Shown here piece by piece: positions 1-52,548 of a DNA stretch of 64,000 nt. Positions within the stretch are counted from its first letter, which is position 1, and each line of letters starts with the position of its first letter. The translations under genes were made by a program, and so were the position numbers. The notes beneath the pieces are model-generated. The model was not told where the DNA came from, ran no database searches, and worked only from the letters and a program-made list of their open reading frames with translations. The stretch comes from Sphaerodactylus townsendi (Eukaryota), in NCBI RefSeq assembly GCF_021028975.2, contig NC_059428.1, forward strand, positions 74,958,001 through 75,022,000, written 5' to 3'.

Positions 1-43
1 CAGGATAAATCATAACTTTTTTCATTCCTTCAGGTTGTTGGGG

Positions 44-2052
44 AGAAGACAATACCCCCCCCTCTCCTCATCAGCTGACAGCTGACAGCCTGCGTAGCAG
101 GCTGTCCTGTCCACCATCCTTCTCCCTTCTACCTCCCAGGTGTCAACCTGCATAACCCTAGAAATGCTAGCGTGTTCCCCAGCTATCTGTCATGCTATTC
201 CCTAGCTGGCAATTGTAGTGGCTGAGTGTATCTGTGTGTGTGTCATTCGCTTTGGAAGTTGGCTCTACTTGGCAAGTCCAGGGTGTTTCTGTGTAGCGTT
301 TTTAATCTGTGTTCAACAGACTGGCATCCCTCTCAGTCCCTCCCAAGAGGAGCTGTTCATGAGCGGGAGTGAAGCGCCGTTTGAAACTGCAAAAGGAGCC
401 GTCAGGCTCGCCTTCCCACCCACCCAGGTGTCAATCTGCATAACCCTAGAAATGCTAGCGTGTTCCCCCAGCTATCCGTCATGCTATTCCCTAGCTGGCA
501 ATTGTAGTGGCTGAGTGTATCTGTGTGTGTGTGTGTGTGTGATTCACTTTGGAAGTTGGCTGTACTCGGCAAGTCCAGGGGCGTTTCTCCCTAGCGTTTG
601 TAATCTGCGTTCAACATGCTGGCATCCCCCCGCCCTTCCCCAAGCCCTGCTGTGTGTGTGTGTGTGTGTGAGAAGGAGAGAGCCCCTTGCTCGTTGAAAC
701 TGCAAAAGAGCTGCTAACGGGTGGGGTGTTCCCCTCCCACTTATCAAACGCTCATCTCCCCCCCCCTCGCTCTTCTCCTCGAGGGTTCTTGGAATAAGTC
801 CTTTATGTGTGCAGCGCGCCTGTTTCCAAACGTTGTTGTAAAAACAGACCCTTTCTCCCCTCCCAAAAGCCAAGGCGTTTGAATCATGCATCTTTCCCAT
901 CTCCGGAGCGGTCTTGGAATAAGCCCCCCCCCCCTATGTTTGCAGCCTGCTTCTTTCCAAACTTTGTTGTAAAAGCATCCTCCCTCCCCAAAGCCAAAGG
1001 GTTTACCGAAAACAATTGGGAACCGCCCAGCGCGTTCCTTCCCTGCCTACGCTGAGGTTTGAATACGAAAGCCCCGCAGTCTGCATTTCAGCACTATTTC
1101 CGCAAAAGGAAGCTCACCTTTTGTTTCTAAAGTGTATTGTGAAAAGCATCCTGCCCTACGGGGGCTGCTTTCTGAAAGCAGAGGTCGTCCAGAAAATAAA
1201 AAAAAAGGAGCAGAGAGCGTTTTGCAGGGTTTTTTCCCTAAAAGGAACGTGACTTCCTGAAAGAGTCCGTCCTGTGTTTTCCCTCCTCCCCCTCAGGGCA
1301 GTATGGCCGGGGAGCTTAATAGGGACTGGACCGATCTGTGCACCCTGCATGGTGTTCCTGACAAACCAGGAAGCATGCTTTTAAGAAAATAATAAAGTGT
1401 TTTTCCAGGCAAGAGCTGGTCGTTATTCTCGTGTGCTATGCAAAGCACCGCTTGTGTAATTCTGTCCCTCCCCAGCGAAGCAGCAGCTGCAGTCGCTGCA
1501 AAGTTTTCAGATTCTTCGTGATACCGCCACCCATGCGAGTTTTACGAAGCGCAGGTACAGCATACCGGCATGTCCCTTCTAGAGTGTCGAATGAAGGCGC
1601 AGAGCTTCCTGTCACCCTTGGGCTTATAATTTAATGGCAGGCAGTCCGCCGTGGTTGGGGCTGGGGATGACGCTGCAATTTGTGATTTCACGGGTGTGCG
1701 ACCCATCAATCAACCCGGCTCGCTCGGCAGAAGCCGGCGATGTCATTTTAGGGCGGTGCGGTGCTCTTTGGGGCTCCCCTGGAGATTGGGAACGGCCGAA
1801 TTTGGCCCAAAAAAGTTGATTTCCAGGCCATACGACGTGCCAATCAACCAGGCATGATCGGCAGAAGCCCGTGCAGTCGTTTTAGGGCGATGCGGGGCTC
1901 TTTGGTCGTTATCAGCCGGCGGCCATGTCGGGCGGGTCAAGTATCAATTTTGATTCCGTGTGCTGTGTGAGACGTCAATCAACTCGGCTCGATCTAGCGA
2001 GCGATTTAAGGCCGACCAATGAGGCGCCGGACCTCGGGGGCATAAATATGGG
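44..2052 (+). repeat. Left terminal inverted repeat (~2.0 kb)
   Basis: Reverse complement of 16290-18321. Similarity stops abruptly after ...GGGGGCATAAATATGGG (2052). The outer ~950 bp are nearly identical; the inner ~1 kb is indel-rich relative to the right copy. Confidence 0.95.
1683..2052 (+). promoter_or_regulatory. Putative inward-facing promoter at the inner end of the left TIR
   Basis: Three ~134-bp tandem units each contain CAATCAAC (1707, 1841, 1976). They are followed by CRE-like GACGTCA (1971), CCAAT (2016) and TATA-like CATAAATA (2041-2048), about 66 nt upstream of AGCATG (ATG 2114). Confidence 0.6.
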
Positions 2053-2113
2053 CAAGAAGAAGGTGTGGAAGCGCTTTTTCTGCCGTTGCTGGCTAGGAGG
2101 TGTTCTTGAAAGC

Positions 2114-2919
2114 ATGCCCGCGAATGAAAATATGCAGCCTGATACAGCGGTAATCGAAGGGTCGGGTGCTGAAGAAGGAATTTATGAAGACATGCAACCC
2201 GCTGTTCCGGACCCGGGAGAGGCTGTTATTTACGAGGAAATGGCTCCGGTACGAGTACCAGACAGGCGCCAGTGCATTCACTTCTTGCTAGATCAGGCAA
2301 GTATTATAGGGGGAAATGTGTGGTTGTTTTTTTTAAAAAAAAAATTGAAGCGTTGCAGTGCGTAGGGGGGGAAAAGCCAACCTGTTCTATTTTATCTTTT
2401 GTAGCTAGGGGATAGACGTGGTGAACGTTTCACAGGTGGTGAGTTGATCGATATTCTGGATGTTGTGTACACAAAACCACTAGCTAATTGCTGTCTCGAT
2501 TGCGAGATTATTGAATCTCACCAAAATCCAAGATCAGATGAAGAATCTGATTCTGGCCGGGGTTCAGAGGAAGAAAATGGACCGATGACCCCACCGCCAA
2601 CCCCTGCATCCACGCCGGCAAGCCCTGAGGAGCAGTCTGAGGCAGAGAAGATTATCTGTGTAGAGGAGTTATTTCCTGATGTAAGTATGCAAAAGAATAA
2701 AGGTAACAGTGTGTGTTAAGCCTACAACGTGAGCTGAATGCGTGCTTATGTTTTTAAATGTAGGTATGGAACGACCCGATCGACCTGGCAGCGTTGGCAA
2801 GACAAGTTGAAGGAGAATTGAACCCGGAGTGTTGTTACCGGTGTGGAATGGTTGAGCTGTTTCAAAAAAAAAAGCAGAGTCTTGGAGACCCAAGGGGGCT
2901 GATGCAACGTCAAAATTAA
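2114..2919 (+). CDS. Predicted 3-exon viral accessory protein (exons 2114-2296, 2405-2680, 2764-2919; ~204 aa, or 226 aa from ATG 2048), acidic and rich in short linear motifs
   Basis: Donor CAG|GCAAGT (GC-AG) pairs with acceptor TATCTTTTGTAG|, and donor GAT|GTAAGT pairs with acceptor TTTTTAAATGTAG|. Both introns are phase 0 and the joined frame is open. AATAAA at 3016-3021. Motifs: IYEDM, IYEEM, DSGRGS, TPPPTP, IICVEE, CCYRC. Confidence 0.7.
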
Positions 2920-3070
2920 GAGTTGTAGAATTGTTTTGTAGAATGGAAAAGCCAAAGTGCACAGGGGATGGTAGGGGTGTGGGTCGGTGCCCTCTCTTCT
3001 GTATATAGCGACCTGAATAAAGAAAAAGTATTCATTGCTGTAAAGAAAACGGTGTGTGTGCGTGTGTACC

Positions 3071-4192
3071 ATGTCACGGTCTCAAGAGGGTATCTTGAAA
3101 GCTATTTATTTTAACCCCGGGGAAGTAGGGAGTCTTGGAGGGGTGGATGCGCTTTACAGGGCAGCGCGTAGGAAGGGGTATAAGCAAAGCAGGAATGATG
3201 TAGCAAAATGGCTGGCCGATCAAGATGCATATGCCGTGCACAAAACAGCCAGGGTGCATTTTAAAAGGAACAGGGTTATAGTTGGTGACATCGATGAACA
3301 ATGGCAGGCGGACCTAATGGACGTTCAAAAATATTCCCAATACAATGCCGGTTACAAATACATTTTAACGGTAATAGACATTCTTTCAAAATACGCGTGG
3401 GCAGTCCCGCTCAAAGATAAGACGGGCGGTGAGGTGGCGGGGGCTTTCAAAACTCTATTTGCGGAGGGGCGCCGCCCTCATAAACTGCAAACGGATGAGG
3501 GGAAAGAGTTTTTAAATAAAAAAGTAGCGGAGGTGCTGCGACAATACGGCATAGACCATTTTACCACGAGAAATGAGGTGAAGGCAGCGGTCGTGGAGCG
3601 TTTTAATCGAACCCTCCGTTCACGCATGGCACATTTTTTCACGGCCGAGAACACTTTCAAATATATTAACGTGCTGAAGCAACTCTTAAAAAGTTACAAC
3701 CACAGTTTTCACAGGACCATACAGGCCCGGCCCGCAGATGTCAACACATCCAATTCGTTAGCTGTGTGGAGGCGTGTTTATGGTTCGCAGGCTATTCAAA
3801 AGCAGCCCAGCCGTGCCTTTAAGAACGGGGACCGCGTGAGGGTGTCTAGAGCAAAAGCTAGATTCGAAAAGGGATATGAGCAGACATTCACGGATGAAAT
3901 TTTTATCATAGACGGCACAATCAATAGAGGCATCCGTCCTATGTTCCGGTTGGTTGACTTTCAGGGGGATGCCATTCTAGGGGGGTTCTACCCAGAAGAG
4001 CTCCAGAAAGTTATCAACTGGGAAGACCGTGTATACAGGATTGAGAAAGTTATAAAAAGCAAGACAGAGAAGAAAAGCAAGCTTTTGTTCGTGAAGTGGA
4101 AGGGGTGGCCGTCTAAATTTAACAGCTGGGTGGCGGCCAAAGACGTGACGGAGCTAAATGGAGGAGGAGGGGTTTTACATGCTGCTCCCTAG
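3071..4192 (+). CDS. Maverick retroviral-like (rve) DDE integrase with C-terminal chromodomain
   Basis: Catalytic motifs WQADL, LQTDEGKEF and VVERFNRTL. Chromodomain YRIEKVI...LFVKWKGWPSKFNSWV. The ORF is intact. Confidence 0.97.
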   Translation: MSRSQEGILKAIYFNPGEVGSLGGVDALYRAARRKGYKQSRNDVAKWLADQDAYAVHKTARVHFKRNRVIVGDIDEQWQADLMDVQKYSQYNAGYKYILTVIDILSKYAWAVPLKDKTGGEVAGAFKTLFAEGRRPHKLQTDEGKEFLNKKVAEVLRQYGIDHFTTRNEVKAAVVERFNRTLRSRMAHFFTAENTFKYINVLKQLLKSYNHSFHRTIQARPADVNTSNSLAVWRRVYGSQAIQKQPSRAFKNGDRVRVSRAKARFEKGYEQTFTDEIFIIDGTINRGIRPMFRLVDFQGDAILGGFYPEELQKVINWEDRVYRIEKVIKSKTEKKSKLLFVKWKGWPSKFNSWVAAKDVTELNGGGGVLHAAP

Positions 4193-4898
4193 CAACGCGT
4201 CCACGGACCTATTTCCACAAAACACATCCTCATCTTTCACCGTGCGCCTTTCTAAACCCCTGGATTTACGCGGGCAGTGGGAAGCAGGACTTGCTGAAAT
4301 CCAGTACCCGCACACCTGGTACAAAATCACCAAACCGGCAAGCTTCGCTGTTTCTGAAGGGAACAGTAAGATTGCTCTGGAGTTTAATTTAAGACCGGGA
4401 TATTATTGGACAGTGTCCGAAATAACAGACCACATGAACAGCCTTGTCAGACGCGAGGCAAACCCCCCTTTGAGCATTAGTTTTTATTATGACCCCACGC
4501 AAGCCATGCTCCGGTTTAATGGCCCAAGGGCGTACAGGGTGACGATGAGCGAAGAGTTGGCGTTAATCATGGGGGTCCCCATCAACCAGGCCGTGACGAA
4601 AGCCGGCAACTGCTGCGACATCACAGCCGGCTTTAACACGCTGTATGTCTATACAGATATCACAGAGTATCAGGTGGTGGGGGACACAACAGCGCCACTC
4701 CTGCGCTGCGTGCCGATACGGGGAAACGTTCACGACTTTGTCACGATCACGTATGACAAGCCACACTACGTTCCTATAAATAGGCAGCACATAGAGACAG
4801 TCACCATAGAAGTAAAGAGCGACCAGGACCGCCTTGTACCGTTTAAATACGGGAAGCTTCTGGTGCGGTTGCATCTCAGACCCCGGAAGAGATGGTGA
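4158..4898 (+). CDS. Minor capsid protein (penton)
   Basis: Polinton penton signatures FYMLLPSNAS..FPQNTSSSFTVRL, WEAGLAEIQYP, LYVYTDI, VGDTTAPLLR and LHLRP. Intact and located after the integrase. Confidence 0.9.
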   Translation: MEEEGFYMLLPSNASTDLFPQNTSSSFTVRLSKPLDLRGQWEAGLAEIQYPHTWYKITKPASFAVSEGNSKIALEFNLRPGYYWTVSEITDHMNSLVRREANPPLSISFYYDPTQAMLRFNGPRAYRVTMSEELALIMGVPINQAVTKAGNCCDITAGFNTLYVYTDITEYQVVGDTTAPLLRCVPIRGNVHDFVTITYDKPHYVPINRQHIETVTIEVKSDQDRLVPFKYGKLLVRLHLRPRKRW

Positions 4899-5404
4899 CC
4901 GTGAAAGAGCACGGGAATTCCGCCATGTTTATGAGATATTATCAATCGCAGGCGGGTAGAGGGCTCCCCGGGTTTCGCGGTGCCCCTGTTATGTATGGGA
5001 AAGGTATAGGTGGTATTTTTAGCAGGTTTCTCCGCATGGCTGTGCCGCTTTTTAAAAAAGGAATTGCGATCGCCAAGCCGCATTTGAAAAAAGCAGCCCG
5101 AAACATAGCGCAAGACATGGTTTCTCACGTAACACGGAGCGTTATGAACAAGTATCCCGCACAAGAAGGGTCCGGTCTTCTCTACCTGAAAAGAAGGGGC
5201 GGGGTTAAAAGAAAGCATGCATGGTCCCATCAAGGACCCCCCAGGGCAGTAAAAAGGATCAGCCGCGGCTCTGGGAAACAGAGAGGCAAGCGCCGGTCTA
5301 GAGTCAAAGGTCGGAAGGAGAAGAAGAAGAAGAAGAAGAAGAAGAAGAAGAAGAAGAAGAAGAAGAAGAAGAAGAAGCTGTGTGCTCTCAAAGACGTGTT
5401 CTAA
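4892..5404 (+). CDS. Basic core-like protein (pVII/pVI-like precursor) with poly-Lys tail
   Basis: YYQSQAGRG...MYGKGIGGIFSRFLRMAVPLF is typical of the small Polinton ORF upstream of MCP. It has protease-site-like GxG motifs, an amphipathic helix and an Arg/Lys-rich C-terminus. Confidence 0.8.
   Translation: MVTVKEHGNSAMFMRYYQSQAGRGLPGFRGAPVMYGKGIGGIFSRFLRMAVPLFKKGIAIAKPHLKKAARNIAQDMVSHVTRSVMNKYPAQEGSGLLYLKRRGGVKRKHAWSHQGPPRAVKRISRGSGKQRGKRRSRVKGRKEKKKKKKKKKKKKKKKKKKKLCALKDVF
5321..5377 (+). repeat. (AAG)19 microsatellite encoding poly-Lys
   Basis: Perfect AAG run in frame within the core-protein ORF. Confidence 0.95.
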
Positions 5405-5411
5405 AATAATC

Positions 5412-6722
5412 ATGGCGTTTGTTCATTGTAACTCAGAAGAATGTACCAAATCAGAACTGGACCTGTTTCAAATTGCCCCCACGCAGACAAGCTTGGAGAA
5501 AAGTTTGTATATCGAAGTGCCGCCCCTCTCAGCCCTTTCTGATTTGGCACCTCTAGAATTTTTTATCCCAGGAAACGGTGAAGATTATCTAGACCTGAAT
5601 GATACGCTATTACACATCACCTGCAAGATTGTCAGGGCCGACGGGACAGCCATCCCCAACGACACCAGGGTGACGTTGGCAAACTATCCGATCGCGACAA
5701 TGTTCAGCCAGCTAGATGTCACGCTGGGGGACACCTTGGTCAGCCAGAGCAATAACTGCTACCCTTACAGAGCTTTAATAGAATTGCTTTTGAATTACAG
5801 CGGGGAAACCCTAGCCACCAGATTTTCTACAGGTGCCTTTTTTAAGGATACAGCCAGACATCACGAATCAACAGTTCTGGACGGTCCAAATCAAGGTTTT
5901 GCAAAGAGGGCTGCGCTGACTAACGGGAGTAGGAAAGTGGAGCTGCTGGGGCACCTCCACACGGATCTGTTTTTTCAACCCCGACTTATGATAAACGGGG
6001 TCGATCTGAAAATTAAATTGACACGTGCCAAAGATGCATTCTGCCTTTTAACCAACGACGCAGCCGCCGGTTTCAAGGTACAGATTTTGACGGCCTCTCT
6101 CTTTGTGAAGAGGGTGAAGGTGGCACCGGGGATCAGGTTGGCCCACGCGGAAGCTATGCGAACCACCACTGCCAAATACCCAGTGGACAGAGTGAGCATG
6201 AAGGTATTCAGCATAGCGGCAGGCACGCGTGTGAGCAACGTGGACAATTTATTTCTGGGGCAGCTCCCCAAGCAGCTGGTCTTGGCTCTCGTGGACAATG
6301 ATTCTTTTAGCGGGGAATACACCAAAAACCCCTTCAACTTTAAGCACTACAACGTTAATTTTGTCGCTTTGTACGTCGACGGGGAACAAACACCGTTGAA
6401 GCCACTTCAGCCTGACTACGAAGTGGGAACCCACGCCAGGGAGTATATGAGTTTGCTTCAATCGGCCGGGAAGCATTTGGAGGACAGGCCCTTCCTGACG
6501 AACTGTGAAGAGTTTGGACGGGGGTACGCGCTGTACGGTTTCAACCTGACACCGGATCAAGAGTGTGGGGACCATTACTCTCTGATCAAAACAGGGAACC
6601 TGAGGGCTGAAATCCGCTTTGCCTTTCCGTTGCCCGATACCGTCAACTTGGTTGTGTACGCGGCGTTTGATTCCGTGATAGAAATCAACCAAAACCGCAA
6701 CGTGCTGTTTGACCACGCGTAA
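5412..6722 (+). CDS. Major capsid protein (double jelly-roll, hexon-like)
   Basis: MAFVHCNSEECTKSELDLF start, LHTDLFFQPRLMINGVDLKIKL, NPFNFKHY, GYALYGFNLTPD and GNLRAEIRF. Intact 436 aa. Confidence 0.95.
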   Translation: MAFVHCNSEECTKSELDLFQIAPTQTSLEKSLYIEVPPLSALSDLAPLEFFIPGNGEDYLDLNDTLLHITCKIVRADGTAIPNDTRVTLANYPIATMFSQLDVTLGDTLVSQSNNCYPYRALIELLLNYSGETLATRFSTGAFFKDTARHHESTVLDGPNQGFAKRAALTNGSRKVELLGHLHTDLFFQPRLMINGVDLKIKLTRAKDAFCLLTNDAAAGFKVQILTASLFVKRVKVAPGIRLAHAEAMRTTTAKYPVDRVSMKVFSIAAGTRVSNVDNLFLGQLPKQLVLALVDNDSFSGEYTKNPFNFKHYNVNFVALYVDGEQTPLKPLQPDYEVGTHAREYMSLLQSAGKHLEDRPFLTNCEEFGRGYALYGFNLTPDQECGDHYSLIKTGNLRAEIRFAFPLPDTVNLVVYAAFDSVIEINQNRNVLFDHA

Positions 6723-6723
6723 A

Positions 6724-7251
6724 ATGGACACATGGCAGATAAGGCGTGCGTTGCTAAACAACCCCACGACCAGGAAAAGTTTCTTGGGAGTTTTCGCCAG
6801 CGATATGTTACCCTCTAAAAAGCTGGCCCAGAGGCCTGTTTGTCTGGTGGTGAATACCGACCCTCAAAACCTCCCCGGCGAGCACTGGCTGGCTATTTAC
6901 CTCCCCGATCATGAGCGCGCAGAGTTTTTTGACTCTTACGGAAACCCACCACACAGCTTACTCTACCCACAATCCCTGTTGGCTTTTTAAAAGAAAAACT
7001 CCAAGGAGATCTATTTTCATCAGAAGAAACTCCAGGGGCCCGCATCGACCACGTGCGGGCATCACTGCCTATTTTTCCTGCATCAGAGGTGTAAGGGCCG
7101 GTCGTTTGACACAGTTGTGAAGATGTATTCCGTTGACCCCACGCAGAATGACAGGATGGTCAGGACTTTTGTGAACAAAATCGGAAGGGGGGCGAACGGT
7201 TTACAGGCCCAATTAAGACCTGTACAAGCCTGTGTTTCTTGTGGACCCTAA
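6724..7251 (+). pseudogene. Adenain-like cysteine maturation protease with one in-frame stop (TAA 6988-6990)
   Basis: GEHW and FFDSYG lie before the stop. The same frame continues ...LQGPASTTCGHHCLFF to TAA 7249-7251, so the catalytic Cys lies after the stop. The lesion is probably TTA>TAA. Confidence 0.9.
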
Positions 7252-7349
7252 TAAAAAAAAACCTTTTAAAAAAATAGCATGGGTGAAGGTCTCATTTGTA
7301 AATCAAGACACGGGGACACGGTACCAATTTTTAAAAAATTAATTTTATT
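7250..7349. terminator. Convergent polyadenylation signals between the two gene modules
   Basis: AATAAA on + at 7250-7255 overlaps the protease stop. AATAAA on - at 7349-7344 overlaps the stop of the 7345-8103 ORF. Confidence 0.65.
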
Positions 7350-8103
7350 CTTCCGTTAACCACTTTCCGAGAGCTAGCCCCTGTTTCTTTTTAGAAGAGG
7401 GCAAAAGAGAGTGCATTTTCTGTTTCTTGGAAGACAGGGTGGGAGTTCTCTTTGCAGAGGGTGACAAAAAAGAGGTTTTCAAATCTTCTAGCCGTTTTCT
7501 AGTCGCTACGCTGCCAGCTACAGATGAGGGTGTGTTTAGTTCAGCCAACGCGCCGATGAACACCTCATAGCCTTTAGGGAGGCGTGCAGAAGCCGGGGCG
7601 TGTGGTTGCGTCACGGTTCTGATGAGGTCCAATATATGGGACCCGGGTACGGGCTTTCCTTTGTAAAGGAATGTCCCCTTTTCATCCCAGCTGGCGATGT
7701 GCTTGTTATCACCCATCATCTTGAACAGCACGCGTGCATTGGCTTTGTATCTCGGAGAGAGGCTTTCTACCACATCTTCCAAAACGTGGTCGGTTGGGAC
7801 TGCTAGAGGGGCCTGTGCGGCATCGAGGTGCGGTGGTGGAGCTGTTTGGGGGAAATGCAGATCTAGGCGGGCTGTTTCTTGTTCGGCCTTTCTCACGTGC
7901 GTTAGATATTTCTGAAGGTGTGCGTTATACAGCCGCGCTTTCTCATAATCTGGAAGATCTGTCCTCTGTAGTATGGCCCCCATCTCCTCATCTAGAGTAC
8001 GCACAGTGGTGCTTCGTATGTTTTCGTCACGCAGGCCCATCTGGCGATTTAGCTGCTCCAGCTGACGGCTGGGGACCAGGTACATCTTCTCAGCGTGCTC
8101 CAT
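7345..8103 (-). CDS. Conserved Maverick protein of unknown function (PW/PZ-type)
   Basis: MEHAEKMYLVP, LDEEMGAIL...EKARLY...LQKYL, WDEKG...GSHILDLI and P.G...F..AL.ELN.P are motifs typical of Polinton accessory core genes. Basic C-terminus; intact. Confidence 0.8.
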   Translation of the reverse strand: MEHAEKMYLVPSRQLEQLNRQMGLRDENIRSTTVRTLDEEMGAILQRTDLPDYEKARLYNAHLQKYLTHVRKAEQETARLDLHFPQTAPPPHLDAAQAPLAVPTDHVLEDVVESLSPRYKANARVLFKMMGDNKHIASWDEKGTFLYKGKPVPGSHILDLIRTVTQPHAPASARLPKGYEVFIGALAELNTPSSVAGSVATRKRLEDLKTSFLSPSAKRTPTLSSKKQKMHSLLPSSKKKQGLALGKWLTEE

Positions 8104-8435
8104 TAGAAAGTTGGGCCTTTAACAATCTGGTTAACAGCGGGAGTGTAATGCCCAAGAGACCCCCTATAAACCCACCGCTCTGCTTGACCAGCCGCTGCTT
8201 CTTCTTAATGGGTGTTTTGGCTGCTCAAGGCCTTAATAACGCCCCGCTTTTTTCTCAGAAAGGCCTTCTGGCGATGTGTGAGGGGAATATTTCCCTTCAG
8301 AGCATTTAAGCAAATCTCGCTTAAAGCAAGAACCAGGTCACGCGGCGGGGCTGCAAAAATAGTTTTGCGCAGTTCGGGTGAACACCTAGACAAGAGTTTC
8401 AAGAGAGCACCATTTCTCTTTAAGCATGCTGACAT
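8090..8435 (-). pseudogene. pX-like small virion protein, frameshifted near 8218
   Basis: MSACLKRN...EICLNALKGNIPL... continues in another frame as KTPIKKKQRLVKQSGGFIGGLLGITLPLLTRLL...*. The QxGG|F hydrophobic tail resembles the adenovirus pX C-terminus. Confidence 0.75.
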
Positions 8436-8502
8436 GGTGCAGCTGCTGCTGCTGCTGTTGCTGCTGCTAGGGGCGACAGTAAAAGCTCAGGAAAAGGCCT
8501 GG

Positions 8503-9174
8503 TCAGGCCCTTTTAACAGCCCCAGCTGATTTCTTTAGAATGTAAGCAGCAGGGATGTCTGGGGGAAACAGACCGGTCCTCAACCTGTAAGATTCGGGGG
8601 TGTTGGTGTTTAAATCCACCACTAGGTAGCCGTAGGGCTTGCTCACGGCGTCTTCGTAGACCTCCAGAAAGAATTTACTTTTTCCTGGGTACATTTGGCG
8701 GGCCAGGATGGCTATCTGCAACCGGTCTCTGGGGTTTTTAAATAAAACTAGATATTTGGCATTCAAATGAATAGACCTGCTGCTTTTCCCCTGGCAGAAT
8801 AAGTTCTGCACTATAAAAATAATACTGAGATTCCTGTGATGGGAATACTTGGTGAAGGCATTTTCAATTTCGCCGTTGGTAGAAGCAGAATTCATCAAGT
8901 CATCCACAATGATCAGGTTTCTTTTATTAGGCGGTAACAAAGCATCATCGTTCAAAGAGGGGGGGATGCCCTCTACAAACTGTATAAAGGGGAAACGCGC
9001 GTACAATTCTTTATACAGAGGCTGGAAACAGGAGTAACACCACACAATATTTTCAGGCATTTGAGACAACGTCCCCTCAGCGTGCACAAGCAGATTCTTA
9101 ATAAAGTAACTCTTTCCACAATTGCTGGGCCCTGCAATAATGGCAGAGAACGGGTGCTGCCAACGCGTGTCCAT
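8503..9174 (-). CDS. A32/FtsK-like genome packaging ATPase
   Basis: Walker A GPSNCGKS, Walker B LIIVDD, FTKYSHHRN, VQNLF and KPYGYLVVD. Intact. Confidence 0.95.
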   Translation of the reverse strand: MDTRWQHPFSAIIAGPSNCGKSYFIKNLLVHAEGTLSQMPENIVWCYSCFQPLYKELYARFPFIQFVEGIPPSLNDDALLPPNKRNLIIVDDLMNSASTNGEIENAFTKYSHHRNLSIIFIVQNLFCQGKSSRSIHLNAKYLVLFKNPRDRLQIAILARQMYPGKSKFFLEVYEDAVSKPYGYLVVDLNTNTPESYRLRTGLFPPDIPAAYILKKSAGAVKRA

Positions 9175-9176
9175 CC

Positions 9177-12100
9177 TCAATATCCGTAAGGCAGACTTCG
9201 AAAATTGTCCTTCAGTACACGCTTATCATAAACCACCTTCTGTGTCTTTTTAAGAACCTGGGTTTTAATAGAAAAACTCTGTTTATGTCTGACAATCCCT
9301 GGGTGCTCCACCACTATTGATGCCTGGTTTTCCCCACCCACGTGCGTAAAGACTAATTCTTTCAGGCTGTCAAAATTAATTTTTTGGCTGTTGGCATAGT
9401 TCAGAGTGATCCCCTTCACTTTCAGGCATGCCCCCCCACCCGACAGCTTGTACCCATATGACTTGGGCCCTGTTGAGACAAATTCTGTGATATGCTGACC
9501 CTCTGGTATTTCGCTGGTCAGCTCCCCTAAATAATCACCAAGACGAGGCTTCCAATCGTCTTCTTTGCTCCTAAATATAACAGAATCAGTGTCATAGTAT
9601 AAGCACCTCTCGCCCAGTTTGTTTAACAGCTTGTACAATTCTAATCGGCCGTAAGCTGTGGTAAAGCATGCTATGTACACGTTGGTGTTCCCAGAGGCGG
9701 CCAGGGTTGGTTTAGAGAGCCTCCATGACACACAGACCGCATCATCACTGACAAAATCACACCAAGTGGGTTCATACTTATCTGAAAAAACCAGCTCAAA
9801 ATACCTGTTTGGATCTCTGACAATCTCAGTTCTTGGCAAGTTGGACCTCTGTGCAAATTTACCCCACAGAGAATTAAGAAACAGTTTAGCAACCTGCCTC
9901 TTTGCAGGGTTTGGCTTGATATGCGTGGGCCGCAGGGCAACCTCCTCCTTTGTATAAAAATCTTCTACATACTTTTTATCTGCCTCGCTGACTGCCCACG
10001 ATGGGTAGCCCGACGCTTCTTGCTTATTTCTCAGATGGCACTTAATGTGTTCTGAAAACAAGTCTGTGGATTGCTCCTCAAAATGCCACACTTCAAAGAT
10101 CTCCCCCACTCTATACCCCTGTTCTATGGCCACAGCGATCTCACAAGTGCACCACGTGCCTATCAATGCCCTTTCTTCGTCGTTGTGAGTGCAGGGTACC
10201 TGGAGTTTTTGGGCCGCACAGGTCCTGCACAATGTGAAATAGAGCTTGCCATCGGTCTTGCTAGGTAGTACCGGGAAAAACAGACCTCTGGGGGGGTACA
10301 CTTTCACCTTAACCAATCCAAAATATTCTGTCAAGGGCCTGAAATTCTCATAAATGATCACCGGGTGGCCTTTTGGGTAAACTTTGTTAGCATTTACAAA
10401 GGGATACAAGCTGCAATAATCCACGTATGCAACTTGTTCATTTTTTTCAGTTTTGTGGTATAGTGTCACAGCATTGGTCCGCCCCCCAAAGAGAGCGTCT
10501 CTGGGTTTTAATGGCTCTGGGAAACGGGCCTCTTTCAGGAAAGCTTTTACACGTTCATCTGTGGCTTTTAGATTTTCCCACTCATGTTCCCATATTTCTA
10601 TGACTCGAAACCCCTTTTTTTTCAATTCATCAGACCTCTGGCGGGTAGCAGAGTTTAACTCTGCGTATGTTCTGTTGCTCACTCTGGAAAACGCCTGGGG
10701 GTCTGTGCAGAGGGCACAGCCATGCCATTCACATCCTAAGAATTCGTACCCTATCTTCTCGCCATTTTGCACCGCGGTGAATCAGCTATTCAGAAAATAT
10801 TTCCTCGCTTTAAAATTTCACCCTTTGAGAGCTGCGGTTCGATTTGAATGTTTTCTGAGTGTTCGATGTAACTCAGCCATTGAATAGAGGCTGTGGAAAA
10901 CCTTTTTACCTGCTTGTGATAGTGGTCTGCAGGTGGGATGGCTATAGACTGCGGCCGTAGGAAATTAAGCCTATACATGGCTAGACACACGCTGGCCAAG
11001 GTTGTGTACTGCAAGGGGTCTATAGAGAGATTGTCCTCCCTAGTGGTCATGTTAATGATTTCCTGTCTGTACAGAATGCAGGCTTTTTCTAGAATTTCCA
11101 CATCTTTTTGACAATAATAAGCCAACTCTCTTTGAAGGTCAAAGGTCGCTCTTTTGTTTTGTTCATACCACACCATGAAATCAGACCTCTCTTTCTCCTT
11201 CATGTAATTTACCGTAAAATTTGCATGGGAGTGCCCTTCCAGGTAATTTTGATTAGCACGTGTATTAAACAGATGGGGGAAGAACCCTTTGCACCCCTCG
11301 AAGCCCAGGGCCCCGGGTAATTTTGCTAAAGTGAGGGGTAGGTGTTCAGAGAATCAATGAATTTTATACCGTGTGACTTAATGGTTACGCACATAAGCTT
11401 CCCCCCAACAGTCAACAGCTGTGGATCTAGCCTCTCTTCAATCAGCCGACGGACCAAGAAATAGCAATCATAAGATTTTGAATTATGGGCGATAAAAGTA
11501 CAATCCCTAAACTTCTTCTTCTGCAATGTGATGGTGGCAATAAAATCTTCTACACATTTTTCACCTTTGAACACCCAAGAACACCCTCTTATTTTCCATT
11601 CGACGTCCCCTGACCCCTCCCAGGCCTTTGCATATAGATAACAGGGCCTGTGAAGCCAGTCATCCGTTTCCTCTTGGGTGCTTTCTATGTCATAAAAGAT
11701 ATATCTTTCAGAACTTAGGGGGCTTTCAAGCGGCTGAATATAGCACAGTTCATGTGCGGTTTCGTGCTGCTCAAGTCGTCCCCCACACTGTCTACAAACT
11801 CTCCCCTTACATTTTATAAACTGGTGCTGCATCTTTTGGTAAGATTTGCAATCGGCACACCACTTTCGAGAAATGCATGCCGTGTCATCATTTTCCACAC
11901 GTTCCCCGTGCTTCCTGAAGCAATACTCGCTGCTACAGACCATTAAACAATTTTGGCATTGTACGGACTCCCCCTGGATAGTTTTACACTCTGTAGTTGC
12001 ACAAATTCTACAAAAGTTGGCGCAAGTGGTTATCGTACAGCGTTTGACAGTAGGGGCATAGATTTTTAGCACCCACAAGCCCCCCGCACATTCAAAACGC

Positions 12101-13330
12101 CATAATAGTGTTCCTGATGCAACAGGAGAGTATGTGTCTTTGGAAAACGTGGTGGATTGGCTGTTTTAAAGATGTCCCAACCTTTTGTGGGCATGCAAAG
12201 AACAACATGTATGTTCACATTCAAATGTTCTTCAACAATGGACACATCGGACAGGGTCACAGCCTTCTGAGTAGACCACCCGAGCTGCGTATGGAGCTGC
12301 TTAGCCGCCTCTAACAATTCGGAATCTGTAAAATCCCATCCCTCTGCCCTTTTGATCACCCCCATCAAGCAACCCGCAAAACATAGGTTTTCACCCTCGC
12401 TATTCAAATCGATCAAATATCTACGTTTTTTGTCAATGATTGCGCTGTAAGGGATGGATTTAAGGTTCCTTCGTGCACCACCCCTGGGGGGGCTTGTAAT
12501 GGTTGCTATAAGCCTCAGTGTGTCAGAGTTCAAAATTTCTCTATTGCTCTGAAGCGTGCTTGCCACAAAATCTAAAAACTCTGACGCGTTAATGTTGCTT
12601 TTGCATTTCTTAAAGGAATAAACAGGGTTTTGCTCCCCCCCTCACTTCTTCCAATCTAGAACTGAACAAAATCCCCCTCCTGAATCCTCCCACATATTTC
12701 ATCCACAATGCTTTGCACACCTCTTGTAAGAGCCTCTATTGCAGCTGAAAAAGATGTCACCCTATCTAGATTAACAAAACGGAATTCTTCGCTAACCACC
12801 AGTGACCTGAATCTTTGGTATGGTCTTTCCCAAGATCTCACCCTCTCCACGTGTACTTCAGGCTGCTCTGGTGAAGCGTTAATATCACAGCCCTCTTCAC
12901 CCTCCATCCCACTGTCTCCGCCCCCCCGCTTCAGACCCCGTGGGGGTTGACAAAATTGACTCCCCGTCACCCTGTAAACCACAGCCTGTCTGCGTGACAG
13001 GCATTGCGCAGTCCATATACATAGCAGGAGTTTTATTATTCTGGACATCAGCCACAAGCTTGTAAAATTGGTTGCATATAACCTCGTGTGCTGCCTGCTT
13101 TTGCGCAGCCCACTTACATGCCTCATCAGCTTCTTTTTTGGAAGCTTGTTTTTTAATCAATACGTCAAGAAGTTCATCACCCAGGCGGTCCATTTGTTCT
13201 CTGTCTTCTCTCCGTTTATCTTTGCCCCCTTCTGCACCCTTCGACTTCTTGGCTGCCACCTGTTTTTGGGTTGGGGTGTCAGTCGGTGAACGCTTAGACT
13301 TTGAAAGGGCCTTTCTATTTGGGGCCTGGT
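9177..13330 (-). pseudogene. Protein-primed family B DNA polymerase (terminal-protein region, OTU-like domain, Zn-binding region, exonuclease, inserted Vsr-like nuclease, polymerase), broken by at least 6 frameshifts
   Basis: Motifs LQSN, ENLCF...EHYY, YIFYDIES (Exo I), AHNSKSYD (Exo II), KGFFPHLFN, YCQKDVEIL (Exo III), YEFLGCEWHG, DYCSLYP, KLFLNSLWGKF and YYDTDS. They are spread over the ORF fragments 12897-13259, 12656-13126, 12066-12566, 11326-12078, 10790-11203 and 9177-10772. Confidence 0.95.
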
Positions 13331-13434
13331 CTGCAATAAAACAAAGAAAAAAGACCGATTAAAAAATCAAGTGTAGTCCGCCACAGCTCTCTTCTTCCCA
13401 TGTTAAAATAACCAGCTCTGGACATCTTGAAACA

Positions 13435-13488
<54 letters not shown>

Positions 13489-13664
13489 AAGAAAAACAAG
13501 ACAGGCTGGGAGATAAGTGGCAAATTGGGGAGCTGGATCTGTAGCACGTGGGATCCATGTGACATTATTGTCATTTTATGAGATTATTCCTTTTCCACCA
13601 TACAGACTCCACATCACAGCTTACAAAATCTAAGACAGAACACACAGTTACTAAAGCAGCCTCC

Positions 13665-14560
13665 CTCCTCCCCCCATAGAAAAAAGACAGTATGTTTAAC
13701 AAAGCATATTTCTGAATTTCTGCACAATGAACACTCATTTTTTTAATCCCTTTGACACTCACTGGATTTTTTTTTGGGCAGAGCATTGGTGGGTGGCGAC
13801 GGCCCTGGAGATTGAAGAACTCCTGCTGAGATATTCAGAGAAGGCACCGGGGCACCTGTGCTTGATGCCCGTTGATTATACGGCATCAGATCAGCATTTG
13901 TAACAGCTAATCCACTTCCTGAAAACAGACATTAAAATTATGCATAGTATATAGCCATGTTTCCTCTTCTGACAGCCCGTCCCTTCCGTGGCTCATGGAA
14001 CTTTTCTACACACAAGGGTATGTAGAGGCCCTCTCAAGCATATTTTTCATGCAGCTTTTTAGCCTTAAAAGCATGACAATTATTATCTCCCTCCCTCCAC
14101 CCACCACCCCCCCATAGAAAAAAGATAGTATGTTTAACAAAGCATATTAACTTCTGCACAATGCACACTCATTTTTTAATCCCTATGACACTCACTGGAA
14201 TTTGGCAGCAGACTATGGATGGGTGGCAACGGCACTGGAGATGGAAGAACTCCTGCTGACGCTGCAGAGATGTTCAGAGCTGGCACCGGGGCACCTGTGG
14301 CCGATGGCCATTGATTATACATGTTTAGACCACTAGTTGTAGCAGGGTGACCATTTCCTGAAAACAGACATTTAAATTATGCATAGCATACAGCCATGTT
14401 TTCTCTTCTGATGTCCCCCTCACCCCCCCCCCCACTTCTGTGGCTCATGGAACTTTTCCACACACAAGCGTATGTAGAGGACCTCTCAAGCATATTTTTC
14501 ATGCAGCTTTTTACCCTTAAAAAGCATGACAATTCTTATCCCCCTCCACTCACCCCCCCC
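13665..14560. repeat. Tandem duplication of a ~440-bp exon+intron unit inside the Maverick
   Basis: CCCCATAGAAAAAAGA..TATGTTTAACAAAGCATATT recurs at ~13670 and ~14110. CCTGAAAACAGACATT recurs at ~13918 and ~14357. Confidence 0.9.
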
Positions 14561-15038
14561 ATTCTGTTATGTTCTATGTACCCCTGTTTTACACGTGACC
14601 CACCCATTTCTTCAGTCTGTGGGGGAAAATATGGATCTATCTGGGTTTGCGCAGGGATAAAGGTTTGATCGCCGGTCTCTTTTAATATGGCATCTGTGAT
14701 ATAAAAACCAGGCAGGCCTGTTAATAAAATTCTGTTTTTTGCAGGATCTTACCACCCTCTAAAACCCATATATAAAATTACCTAGCGGATCCTCATAATG
14801 GCCAGCAGGGTTCACTGCTGCGTCATAATTATACCCATTCACAAATTTTTTAAGAAGATTTATGGGAGCTGCTTCGGTTCCTGTATTTTGGGGAATATTT
14901 CAGAAGACACACACTTCTTATTATCCGGGCCATTGCTTTCTTAAAAATACCCCCCACACACACACACCCCACACACCCCAAACCACTACAGGTCTTACCT
15001 TCGGCAGCTTGGAGCATTTCCGCATCAGTAGCATCCAT
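13763..15038 (-). CDS. Predicted spliced 5' exons of the pPolB unit: 15038-14999, 14880-14782, 14693-14604, 14357-14196, 13918-13763, joining the acceptor at 13330
   Basis: All introns are GT-AG and phase 1. Internal exons are 99, 90, 162 and 156 nt, all multiples of 3 and stop-free. The joined frame matches the 12897..13259 ORF. Confidence 0.65.
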
Positions 15039-15354
15039 TTTATTTTATTTTTTAATGAATTTTTTAAGGCTGCTTCACTCAGAAGACCCTCTAAGCCACG
15101 GGAGCACGTGTGACTGTCTTGGGGCCAGTGGGTCTAACAGTTATATTTTTCAAGTAAGGGGGTGGGCCTGTGCCTTATCTGGGTTTACCAACTGCCCATC
15201 TGTGAGCAACTGCGTGTTGTGTGGGGCCTCCTGGCTGTGGTCATCTCCTAATCAGATAAGCATTAAAACACCACCCCTCCCAAGAAACAGAAAAACTTTT
15301 AAAGAGTTTCAATAAATGTTTTATTGAATATAATTCTGCATATTTGGTTTTATT

Positions 15355-16237
15355 TTACTTGGAAAAGAATACATTCAAAGTACGACTACCAACATTCAAC
15401 GCCAGATATTTTTTTACAAGAACCACAAAATCCTGGTTACATTTGTCAGAGAATTTCTGCAAGCATTCTGTAGGACAGCTAGCCGACTCCACATTTTTCA
15501 CAAATTTGGCCAGAGTGACAAAATGGCTGTTGTTCAGTGACAAACACCCAGTACACAATCCAAGATGCGTGATTACTTGAATAATTGGTTCTAAACAGAC
15601 ATTGTGACACACAGACCTCAACCGTTCATCAAAATCACATTGTATACAATCGTGGCTGTTCAAATCCTTGCAATTATTCTGGCAGGCGGTGCACATGGCA
15701 TGGCATAAATCATTCAGACACCATTTCATAATTACAGAAAGGGTTGCTCTTGAGAGTTGCCCAATAGCAGATCTTCTTTTTGAGGGTTCCACACTTGGTA
15801 TATCAGCCACCCTGAGTTTTGCGTTGCACCTCATGACTTCGGCCATGGACTTTCTGTCCCTGAGAGAATCGGCCATGCTGAAAAGGGTGAAGTTCTGCAA
15901 AAAAACAAAAATAGCATTTTAAAACCCCTCTGCAACACTATACAGCATCTCCCCCAGTGCCCCAACCTGTCCTGATCCATCTCACCTCCATCTTGACATG
16001 CTTATTCTGTTCAACACCATCTTCTGTTGAAACACAGGCATCACGGGTCTGCTTCTGGTCGGTTGGTCCAGCATCACCCTCAGACCCCGGAAACAGCTTT
16101 TTGGCACATTTCTTGAAAAAAATGTCCTCGTCGCTATCATCAGCATCCATAGCCGCACGCTGCCTCTTCAAACGCCTCCCTCTGGTCGGGGCAGGGGGTG
16201 GAGAAAGTGAAAAAAGGCTCCCTGCGGGGGTTTCCAT
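15355..16237 (-). CDS. Predicted 2-exon viral accessory protein (16237-15986, 15894-15355; ~263 aa) with NLS, KKLF motif and Cys/His-rich domain
   Basis: Donor GAG|GTGAGA and acceptor TTTTTTTTGCAG|AAC, phase 0, join ORFs 15938..16237 and 15355..15900. AATAAA lies immediately after the stop. Contains CTAC...HDC. Confidence 0.75.
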
Positions 16238-16289
16238 GCTCAGCTATGAAACAGGTTTGGTTTCGCAGCTGTCTCCAAGGCCCAGAATA

Positions 16290-16660
16290 CCCATATTTAT
16301 GCCCCCGAGGTCCGGCGCCTCATTGGTCGGCCTTAAATCGCTCGCTAGATCGAGCCGAGTTGATTGACGTCTCACACGGCACACGGAATCAAAAATTGAT
16401 ACCCCGACTACCGGACATGGTCACCGGCTGATAATCACCAAAGAGCCCCTGCATCGCTCTAAAACGACTAACGGGCTTCTGCCGCATCATGCCTGGTTGA
16501 TTGGCACGCTGTGATGGCCCGAAATCACCTTTTGGGCCAAATTTCGCCGCTCCTAATCTCCAGGGGAACCAGCACTGCACCGCCTTAAAATGACATCGCC
16601 GGGCTTCTGCCGCAGCTTGTGCCGGGTTGATTGATGGGTCGCGACGCCTGCGAAATCACA
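16290..16660 (-). promoter_or_regulatory. Putative inward-facing promoter at the inner end of the right TIR
   Basis: Mirror copy of the left cassette. TATA-like CATAAATA at 16301-16294 lies about 57 nt upstream of AGCATG (ATG 16237). Confidence 0.6.
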
Positions 16661-18321
16661 AATTGCAGCGTCATCCCCAGCTCCCAACCACGGGCGACCT
16701 GCCTCGCTGCCATTAAATTATAAGCTCAAGGGTGACAGACAGCTCTGCTGCCTTCATTCGAAAGACTTCTAGGAAGGGACATGCCCGGCATGCCTTTTCA
16801 ACCACGCCTGGCCCGCCTCCATGGGTGGCGTGTATAATGTAAGTTCGAAAACTTTGCAGCTTAATTTCGCCGCCGAGCGCCAGGGTGAGGAGAGGGGACA
16901 GAGTACACAACGGTGCTTTGCATAGCAGCCACGAGAGCCAACGACTCCGCCTTTGCCTGGAAAAACACTTTATTATTTTAAAAGCATGCTTCCTGGTCGG
17001 TTGTCAGGAACACCATGCAGGGTACGGCAATAGACGTCCAGTCCTCGACAAGCTCCCCGGCCCTACTGCCCTGAGGGGAGGAGGGAAAACACAGGAAGGA
17101 CTCTTTCAGGAAGTCATTACTGTTTTAGGGAAACCCTGCAAAACGCCTTCGCTCCTTTTTTTTTTTTTTTTTCTGGACGCATCCTCTGCTTTCAGAAAGC
17201 AGCCCCGTGAGGGCAGGGATGCTTTTCAATACACTGTAGGGACAAGAGGGGAGCGTCCTCTTGCATAAATTGTGCTAAAATGCAGCCTGCCGGGCTTTAT
17301 GTGATTCAAACCTCGCTACCAGAGACGGGGAAGGGCATCGCCGGGGTCGGTTCACCAATTGTTTTCGTAAACCTTGGGGTTTGGGGAGGGGGGATGCTTT
17401 TACAACGAAGTTTGGAAAGAAGCAGGCTGCAAACATAGGCTTATCTCCAGACCGCTCCGGAGATGGGAAAGATGCATGATTCAAACGCCTTGGCTTTTGG
17501 GAGGGGAGAAAGGGTCTGTTTTTACAACAACGTTTGGAAACAGGCGCGCTGCACACATAAAGGACTTATTCCAAGAACCCTCCGGAGAAGGAGGGGGCGG
17601 GGGTGGGGGGAGATGAGCGTTTGATAAGTGGGAGGGGAACACCCCACCCGTTAGCAGCTCTTTTGCAGTTTCAACGAGCAAGGGGCTCTCTCTCTCACAC
17701 ACACACACCCACACACAGCAGGGCTTGGGGAAGGGCGGGGGGATGCCAGCATGTTGAACGCAGATTACAAACGCTAGGGAGAAACGCCCCTGGACTTGCC
17801 GAGTACAGCCAACTTCCAAAGTGAATGACACACACACACACACAGATACACTCAGCCACTACAATTGCCAGCTAGGGAATAGCATGACGGATAGCTGGGG
17901 GAACACGCTAGCATTTCTAGGGTTATGCAGATTGACACCTGGGTGGGTGGGAAGGCGAGCCTGACGGCTCCTTTTGCAGTTTCAAACGGCACTTCACTCC
18001 CGCTCATGAACAGCTCCTCTTGGGAGGGACTGAGAGGGATGCCAGTCTGTTGAACACAGATTAAAAACGCTACACAGAAACGCCCTGGACTTGCCAAGTA
18101 GAGCCAACTTCCAAAGCGAATGACACACACACAGATACACTCAGCCACTACAATTGCCAGCTAGGGAATAGCATGACGGATAGCTGGGGAACACGCTAGC
18201 ATTTCTAGGGTTATGCAGATTGACACCTGGGAGGTAGAAGGGAGAAGGATGGTGGACAGGACAGCCTGCTACGCAGGCTGTCAGCTGTCAGATGATGAGG
18301 AGAGGGGGGGTATTGTCTTCT
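16290..18321 (-). repeat. Right terminal inverted repeat (~2.0 kb)
   Basis: Begins CCCATATTTATGCCCCCGAGG at 16290, the reverse complement of the left TIR inner end. The mirrored ORFs 218..514/17852..18148 confirm the inversion. Confidence 0.95.
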
Positions 18322-18600
18322 TTGGGGGTTTTTTGACATTGAATCCAGTTTCTGTAAAGCTAGATCACATTTTAGTGATTTTTAGCTGGCTGCAATAACG
18401 GATTATGATACAGCTCCAATATACTCATGATTACTATGGGTGCCAATGAAGAAATATCAAATTAATAGTTTTGCATTTACACTAACCACGGAACATATAT
18501 GATATAAGTGTTTATTGTGTCAAATTTGGGAAAGGACTTTAAGACAGGCTTTGCACAATAAAAAAATGTACTATGTAACTTGCTGTATTAGGATATCTTT

Positions 18601-35863: not shown

Positions 35864-36862
35864 CAGTGACATAGGTATAGATTTTTTATGTGGGGAGGTT
35901 CAGGAACAGGGCCATGCCCCCACCCGCCCCTGGGGGCATGGCCATGCCTCCTCAAGCCCTGCCCCTGGCCTCAGTGCTTATAAAAGCAGCTCTCTGAGGC
36001 CAGGCATGACAGACTCCCCTGCCTCGCCTGCCCGCCCCCCCACCGGCTGGGCTCCCAGCTGGCAGCAGGCAGGCCCTTCTGCCCTCCCCTTCGGGCAGAG
36101 GCTTAGCTAGGGAAAATGGAGCCTTGTGCAAAATCTGAATTTTGCGGCTCCCCCCAATGGGCAGCCGCTGTGATGCTGGAATCCACCCCCAAACAGCATC
36201 ACTTTCAATGGTGTTTAAATTAGGGAGCCCAGATTCTTCTTTTAAATCCACCTTAAAGGGAGAATCTGGGGTCCCCAGTTAAAACAACATTGATAGTGAT
36301 ACTGTTTTGGGGTGGATTCTCCCCCACCCTGAAACAGTATCACTTTCAAAGTTTAAATTGGGGATCTCAGATTCTCCCTTTAAATCCATGCTGAAGGGGG
36401 TGGATTTAAAAGGAGAATCTGGGGAAATTTGGGGGGTGCCTGATGTCAGGGGTGCAATTGTTAAGCTAGTAGCACCAAACTTTCAGGGTATCTTCAGGAG
36501 ACTCTCCTAATGATACCACCCAGGTTTGATGAAGTTTGGTTCAGGGGGTCCAAAGTTATGGACCCTCAAAGGTGTAGCTCCCATCTCCTATTAGCTCCCA
36601 TTGGAAACAATGGGGGATTGGGCACCCCCTTTGCGAGTCCATAACTTTGGACCCCCTGAACCAAACCTCACGAAACCTGGGTGGTACCATCAGGAGAGTC
36701 TCCCAACAAATTCCTGAAATTTTGGTGCTGCTAGTCTAAAAGCTGTGCCCCCTGCAGGTCAAAAACAAAAAACACTAAAAAACAAAAAACACAAATGGGT
36801 GGAGCTTCTGACATGTAATGGAGGGGTTTGCACCCAAGAACCCCCCCTTAGCTACATCCTTG
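35864..36862. mobile_element. ~1 kb non-autonomous hAT-like element; relatives at ~54200-55177 and ~60700-61600
   Basis: Shares internal GGGTCCAAAGTTATGGACCCTCAAA blocks and internal inverted segments with 44982-46178. Ends CTACATCCTTG, like the 55177 copy. Confidence 0.75.

Positions 36863-44547: not shown

Positions 44548-52548
<8,001 letters not shown>

Follow-up and report, generated by a model that had tools for sequence, protein, structure and literature searches.

Terminal inverted repeats of a gecko Maverick/Polinton end at a TATA-like box in front of two different spliced genes

One gecko Maverick raises the question of whether its terminal inverted repeats (TIRs) also carry a promoter for the genes at both ends, which bears on how vertebrate Mavericks are transcribed. 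We analysed a stretch of 64,000 nucleotides from Sphaerodactylus townsendi (contig NC_059428.1, positions 74,958,001 to 75,022,000, called the window below), at the start of which lies a Maverick/Polinton of 18,278 bp (18.3 kb, 44-18321). An initial annotation had proposed that the TIRs of this element end exactly at a duplicated core promoter, which fires inward into two different genes. We found that the feature is real, precisely bounded and conserved; what it may do is weighed below.

Self-BLAST gave a single inverted match, 44-2052 against 18321-16290, with 88% identity. The left TIR (44..2052, forward strand, terminus AGAAGA) is 2009 bp long and the right TIR (16290..18321, reverse strand) 2032 bp. 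Both TIRs finish with ...GGGGGCATAAATATGGG, 4 nt past the TATA-like box CATAAATA (2041-2048 on the left and 16301-16294 on the right), and the two ends diverge from the very next base. The annotated end points of the similarity (2052 and 16290), each 4 nt past the box, were confirmed. Each repeat carries the box in its last bases, and the two boxes face different genes.

The left terminal gene (2114..2919, forward strand) has exons 2114-2296, 2405-2680 and 2764-2919, and its intron 1 (2297-2404) is of the GC-AG type, with a GC donor after 2296; a poly(A) signal follows at 3016..3021 (forward strand). The right terminal gene (15355..16237, reverse strand) has exons 16237-15986 and 15894-15355 and encodes 263 aa. 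The exon coordinates read off the window reproduce the database models P0002 (left) and P0001 (right), which are gene models of the same genome and not proof of expression. Protein records labelled Sphaerodactylus townsendi agree with both terminal genes in every letter. As annotated, the genes are different and spliced, and both start with AGC-ATG, at 2114 and 16237; the spacing of 57-66 nt given for them is the distance to these main ATGs from another ATG inside the box (2048 and 16294).

Identity between the arms changes by zone. It is 98.1% in 44-740, an outer zone (forward strand) with an internal duplication of about 200 bp (132-330/420-628), 90.6% in 741-1000, and 80.9% in 1001-1945, where 86 substitutions and 67 indel events were counted. 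This divergent, indel-rich middle (81%; 1001..1964, forward strand) gives way to a block of 88 bp which is identical in both arms (88/88; left copy 1965..2052, forward strand; right copy 16290..16377, reverse strand). No identical run in the middle exceeds 30 nt, and given 81% identity a run of 88 has p ~1e-8. The promoter-like block is the last of three degenerate units of about 134 bp (1707..2052, forward strand; starts at 1707, 1841 and 1976), each opening with CAATCAAC. In the left copy it contains GACGTCA (1971-1977), CCAAT (2016-2020) and CATAAATA, with a CpG observed/expected ratio of 1.3. The annotated claim that the inner ~100 bp match better than the adjacent 1 kb holds (88/88 vs 81%), with the reservation that assembly errors may inflate the contrast.

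Contigs from two DNA runs of separate studies, X1 from organism A and X7 from organism D, were aligned to 760-3100, and in both runs a contig of 168 letters starts at 2023, with one difference each. The stretch 2023-2053 is the first 31-letter word to extend beyond 2052, and an assembly graph branches at the first word past the point where two sequences part. A second X1 contig, with 88% identity and one repeat unit more (about 125 bp), stops aligning at 2052. The branch at 2052/2053 in the contigs of both runs (2/2) therefore indicates that the TIR boundary is fixed beyond this copy, and variability of the boundary among copies was not seen in either relative examined. Of 120 substitution rows, the 40 best supported fall in 1033-1942 (25) and 2503-3068 (15), and 1943-2502 has none. 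The inner block, like the boundary, is therefore conserved outside this copy as well. The TIR-like contigs of X1 (760-2052), including the one with the extra unit, are several times deeper than the adjoining gene, and related TIRs may be shared among several families or non-autonomous elements.

Scans of viral contigs for relatives of Mavericks gave no hit with the capsid, none usable with the integrase and one locus with the ATPase, 42% identical. This locus, L001, is a Maverick-like contig that looks complete; its core genes all share one strand, and its TIRs measure about 277 bp (1-277 and 12050-12321). The outer part of its TIR is identical, the middle diverged and the inner part conserved, and both arms finish in an ATG, followed by frames of 4 and 7 codons.

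Whether the TIR middle is truly so divergent is a separate axis, compatible with each of the readings discussed below. The chances are even that its low identity stems in large part from long-read or repeat-collapse errors left uncorrected in this assembly; the whole TIR may then be nearly identical, without any special homogenisation of the inner block. The middle shows 1.3 substitutions per indel event and two thirds of the events are 1 nt, vs 4-6 substitutions per indel event in four control repeat pairs, and simulations needed 8-10% indels to reproduce the ratio. The outer 700 bp are 98% identical, the target-site duplication is perfect, and frame changes break the polymerase and protease. 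Of 14 listed sites with a difference between the arms, the contigs carry the right-arm letter at 8 and neither letter at 6; at seven of those eight the left letter occurs in none of the aligned contigs, and about 6 of 12 listed indels agree with the right arm. On the other hand, the substitution rows record departures from the left arm only (best 40 of 120), so right-arm errors cannot be counted, and at 11 of 25 sites, several of them alignment-ambiguous, the two arms share a letter that the contigs lack. The greater depth of the TIR-like contigs means that they mix many copies. In L001 the three zones recur, at 1.6 substitutions per indel, and the tandem units of the TIR itself give a ratio of about 2. 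CpG-linked sequencing error was rejected as the specific cause; CpG enrichment of the arm differences is not above controls. With the odds on error even, the better match of the inner block carries little weight alone and its conservation across organisms carries more.

A shared promoter borne by the TIRs is likely, and is the best reading of this arrangement, based on the fixed boundary, the CpG-rich block with a cyclic AMP response element half-site (CRE-half), CCAAT and the TATA-like box, and the result that a search for one-mismatch TATA words from 1200 up to either gene found none besides CATAAATA. We put at about 75%, two readings being summed, the probability that the inner TIR block is an RNA polymerase II promoter duplicated by the repeat, by which both terminal genes would be activated together. 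The inner TIR end would be one promoter for the host polymerase, present twice, and both terminal accessory genes would thereby be switched on together; the repeat would stop where the constraints of each gene begin. The annotated promoter is likely in this shared form, but a single TATA start at each end is too simple. The roles of replication origin and enhancer, also assigned to the TIR, may be expected from the family, the (AGA)2 terminus being the only sign seen of a protein-primed origin.

The left TIR holds eight one-mismatch TATAWAWR words, and the chance that one falls in the last 12-20 nt is about 2-5%, which makes the position of the box suggestive, not overwhelming. That chance leaves room for a by-product, in which end-copying or conversion would extend the TIR inward up to the point where one of two unrelated genes would suffer, halting beside whatever happens to precede them, with no selected co-regulation. 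TIR length varies from 46 to 1447 bp across vertebrate Mavericks in the available part of PMC8097293, and the pattern is missing in L001. Such an origin is nevertheless very improbable, with a boundary that is base-exact in two other organisms and an inner block that is the least variable part of the TIR; even if correct, it would leave each gene preceded by an identical promoter.

CATAAATA closes with an A that also begins an ATG (2048; 16294), which the initial annotation had missed. This ATG has a strong Kozak context (A at -3, G at +4) and is in frame with the main ATG, 66 nt upstream on the left and 57 nt on the right. On the left it opens 22 codons which run into ATG 2114 (2048..2113, forward strand), and the frame translates as MGKKKVWKRFFCRCWLG, a basic and aromatic peptide with a CxC. 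On the right it opens an upstream open reading frame (ORF) of 16 codons (16244..16294, reverse strand), in frame, which closes two codons before the gene ATG. The left leader is conserved, and two paralogs begin in its register. Its first 17 residues are identical to paralog P0011 at 14 and to P0025 at 11, vs 65/182 (36%) and 76/186 (41%) for the rest of the protein, and just past the second Met the identity is 11/40 and 9/40. The second Met follows after 22 codons here vs 19 in the paralogs, and a Met at this position recurs across the homologs of the left gene. The start of model P0002 at 1925 was rejected; it falls in the part of the TIR where the arms diverge, and on the right arm it is not in frame.

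Translation of the left leader would require that some left mRNAs start upstream of the box. We favour two sets of starts, one below the box and one inside the TIR, at about even odds. A start about 30 nt below CATAAATA would yield short mRNAs, read from ATG 2114 on the left and ATG 16237 on the right, and a start further upstream, within the TIR, would yield mRNAs that include the box-overlapping ATG. On the left the protein, which has tyrosine motifs of the YEEM type, would thereby gain a leader of 22 residues, basic and with Cys, and on the right such an mRNA would meet the 16-codon upstream ORF. A basic, aromatic and Cys-containing N-terminus suggests palmitoylation and membrane binding, and the leader is likely a membrane anchor. 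IYEEM is similar to motifs of Src-family substrates and to YxxM ligands of SH2 domains, such as those of polyomavirus middle T. We might speculate about a two-position switch, in which upstream starts would give a membrane-anchored, middle-T-like left form together with a right gene damped by its upstream ORF, and downstream starts a soluble left form and a freed right gene; this extension is doubtful.

The form of the annotation, in which CATAAATA is the sole core promoter and each end has a single start some 30 nt downstream of it, would keep the box ATG out of every mRNA and would turn the likeness of the peptides into conserved initiator DNA. It agrees with the box and its G-rich flanks at the boundary, with a CA dinucleotide at +30/+31 on the right and with the precedent of Junonia coenia densovirus (JcDNV), and a downstream start would avoid the right in-frame ATG closed by a stop. 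The model of paralog P0014 reads YKYGK at this place, which may fit a TATA-like word before the same ATG. However, the conservation of the leader is far above that of the rest of the protein and the change of length is exactly three codons, a conserved Cys lies beyond the initiator zone, and a CRC cluster stands at a like place in the Gekko models P0006 and P0019. We hold a single start per end as a tentative minority explanation. Alternatively, the boundary might mark a start codon, with the promoter and the whole 5' leader inside the TIR, CATAAAT serving as an A-rich Kozak flank, and the right gene reached through reinitiation or leaky scanning. The TIR does end in ATG plus GG, in frame with both genes and in a strong Kozak context, the leader is conserved, and both L001 arms end in ATG. 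A frame kept at both ends is expected by chance in 1 of 9 cases, though, the ATGs of L001 open only frames of 4 and 7 codons, the right frame is closed, and 1200-2040 holds no other one-mismatch TATA word; a start-codon boundary is improbable.

The left protein has IYEDM/IYEEM motifs and two C..CCxxC domains. A homolog search (1.84 billion representatives, E 0.001) returned nine proteins, all gecko records from five species, and the family grew to 24 models after cluster members and a profile search were added; [IVT]Y[EV]E[MT]-type motifs are present in 15 of them. The family is gecko-wide, spliced and unnamed; its features are a leader with basic residues and Cys, IYEEM-type motifs in repeated copies, and at least two C..CCxxC domains. 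Searches of Pfam and Atlas with the left protein gave no match. Two candidate features were dropped: myristoylation as a common property of the leader, P0025 having Glu at position 2, and an E1A-like IxCxE, kept in none of seven aligned homologs.

Several results weigh against a shared promoter with starts on both sides of the box. RNA of a related organism, aligned to 760-3100 (left end), gave 11 reads in X11 and 43 reads in X12, and neither a start pile nor a splice joint was seen in these 11 + 43 reads in either orientation. About one X11 fragment spans 1945-2120, from the TIR interior into the left gene, and is indistinguishable from DNA carry-over. Only 3 of the 24 left-family models start in the register of the box ATG and 6 of 24 have the upstream CxC; most start at or after the second Met, gene predictors being poor at choosing starts. 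The KRFF codons lie at the initiator position (+28 to +40 from the box), and a constraint on the DNA could mimic conservation of the peptide. A TATA at the TIR boundary is absent in L001, the one other Maverick-like element with both ends that was examined (0/1). A coincidence of TIR boundaries with TATA boxes is hence not shown to be general. In the aphid densovirus MpDV, the TATA boxes of both inverted terminal repeats (ITRs) yield only minor starts according to the available part of PMC11642819, which advises caution in reading function from the position of a box.

The right protein has a basic stretch (RGRRLKRQR), a Cys-rich second exon and a CAKKLFP motif, which we take to recall cyclin-docking RxL motifs. 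Among 19 candidates the only match was the protein itself, and Atlas held no entry for it. The predicted structures of the two terminal proteins are of low confidence (predicted local distance difference test, pLDDT, 44 and 46), and a search of viral folds with these models gave nothing at E 0.001. The right protein is encoded upstream of PolB and contains CXXC in pairs, and LXCXE is absent by inspection; the combination expected of an adintovirus 'Oncoid' protein (LXCXE near a CK2 site, paired CXXC, position typically upstream of PolB; PMC8502044) was found neither in it nor in the left protein.

The right promoter had also been suggested to feed the spliced unit of the protein-primed DNA polymerase B (pPolB). 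This is not needed, because the right gene has poly(A) signals of its own at 15354 and 15325 (15320..15354, reverse strand), and downstream of them lies a separate ATG mini-exon with a strong donor (14999..15038, reverse strand) and a TATA-like word at 15145. The mini-exon 15038-14999 is probably the pPolB unit's own start. Within 13200-15038 (reverse strand) it is followed by a tandem duplication of about 440 bp (13670-14560), and each copy has a matching acceptor (14358, 13919) and donor (14195, 13762). The 5' part of the pPolB unit seems to be spliced and exon-duplicated, contrary to the intronless core genes reported.

The remaining anatomy is that of a Maverick. The element is flanked by a target-site duplication TTGGGG, a perfect 6-bp match (38..43 and 18322..18327, forward strand), and its termini are AGAAGA/TCTTCT, i.e. 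(AGA)2//(TCT)2 (44-49 and 18316-18321). Pfam revealed an rve integrase with chromodomain (3071..4192, forward strand; PF00665 E 2e-13, chromodomain E 4e-8, both exceeding the cut-offs), and a TATA-like word lies at 3000, upstream of the integrase ATG at 3071. pPolB (9183..12641, reverse strand) consists of open segments across three frames and matched PF03175 in two of them (E 5e-23 and 4e-11). The putative packaging ATPase (Pox_A32, E 5e-4) and adenovirus-type protease (Peptidase_C5, E 0.03) are below the curated cut-offs, and are 39% and 35% identical to ORFs of L001. The Pfam scan of the element's ORFs gave no match for a major or minor capsid; two putative capsid ORFs, of expected size and order, are 42% and 29% identical to L001 ORFs and are named by position only. 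In L001, a polymerase profile search of the ORF of 1146 aa gave no match.

The ORF map contains two core modules on opposite strands, pointing inward, with accessory regions outside, which is the layout of vertebrate Mavericks (PMC8097293, section 7). The element is outside the 'intact' class of that paper, defined by eight unbroken intronless core ORFs, since its polymerase and protease frames are broken. The frame breaks are in the protease (6724-7250) and the polymerase (9183-12641), and the integrase, capsid and ATPase ORFs are open. A (GAA)21 run at 5314-5377 gives a poly-lysine tail to a 170-aa ORF between the putative capsid genes. Outside the element, a host family of palindromic/inverted repeats, similar to miniature inverted-repeat transposable elements, was found at 35910-36862, 45100-46100, 54279-55177 and 60900-63060.

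The base-precise boundary block offers an element of 88 bp on which one can test what wakes these endogenous viruses. The two spliced terminal genes escape surveys based on ORFs only, and one of them belongs to a family found across geckos, with tyrosine motifs and a candidate membrane anchor. If true, the two-position switch would amount to a programme of early genes in animal viruses of a class that is not known to have been caught replicating.

Several known systems invite comparison. Adenovirus E1A and E4 are spliced regulatory genes transcribed inward from both ends, as the gecko terminal genes would be, and the lineage is related; adenovirus ITRs are about 100 bp, with distinct promoters outside them. 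Homology of sequence or motif between E1A/E4 and the gecko terminal genes was not found. In HSV-1 (US1/US12, S repeats) and in the ITRs of PRD1, one duplicated promoter serves two genes; these viruses are unrelated or prokaryotic, and in HSV-1 the repeat contains both the start site and the first exon.

Nearer relatives are the vertebrate Mavericks, adintoviruses and 'proteoviruses', which according to the available parts of PMC8097293 and PMC8502044 share with the gecko element the TIRs, the 6-bp target-site duplication, two convergent modules, accessory regions at both ends, an rve-chromodomain integrase and pPolB. The gecko TIR of 2009 bp exceeds the range of 46-1447 bp among 134 intact elements, and its end motif (AGA)2//(TCT)2 falls outside the three types given in the same part of PMC8097293. 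Unlike intact vertebrate Mavericks, the gecko element has spliced accessory genes and broken polymerase and protease frames. The available parts of both papers contained nothing on TIR promoters or spliced accessory genes. No report of a Maverick TIR promoter was among the best literature matches, and the supplements of PMC8097293 may list such TIRs. For TIRs of nematode Polintons, the available part of 10.1101/2024.01.15.575659 gives putative factor sites only.

For two starts that flank an ATG, Bombyx mori bidensovirus (BmBDV), also a virus encoding pPolB, provides a parallel in the available part of PMC6521256: its P5/5.5 promoters overlap, one start lies at the TATA of the other, and an ATG lies between. 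Duplication of promoters by the ITR is not reported in that part, and the products are two different ORFs instead of N-terminal isoforms.

The closest counterpart of the whole arrangement, closer than the E1A/E4 analogy first drawn for it, is found in ambidensovirus ITRs (PMC3738899). In JcDNV the ITRs are 547 nt and the TATA boxes of both cassettes are at position 539 (PMC3738899); its promoters are described as partly within the ITRs. The ambidensovirus P9/P93 promoters (PMC3738899, 10.1101/2020.04.06.028852) and the gecko element have in common the long near-identical repeats, a TATA in the last bases and two different convergent cassettes. JcDNV differs as a single-stranded DNA parvovirus, in which the two TATA boxes are unlike in sequence and drive NS vs VP; in the gecko element the two boxes have the same sequence, two accessory genes lie in front of them, and an in-frame ATG overlaps each. 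The known ambidensovirus layout limits the surprise of the gecko finding: the architecture is already known from these ITRs, the setting is new, and the overlap of TATA and ATG with a conserved leader is unreported.

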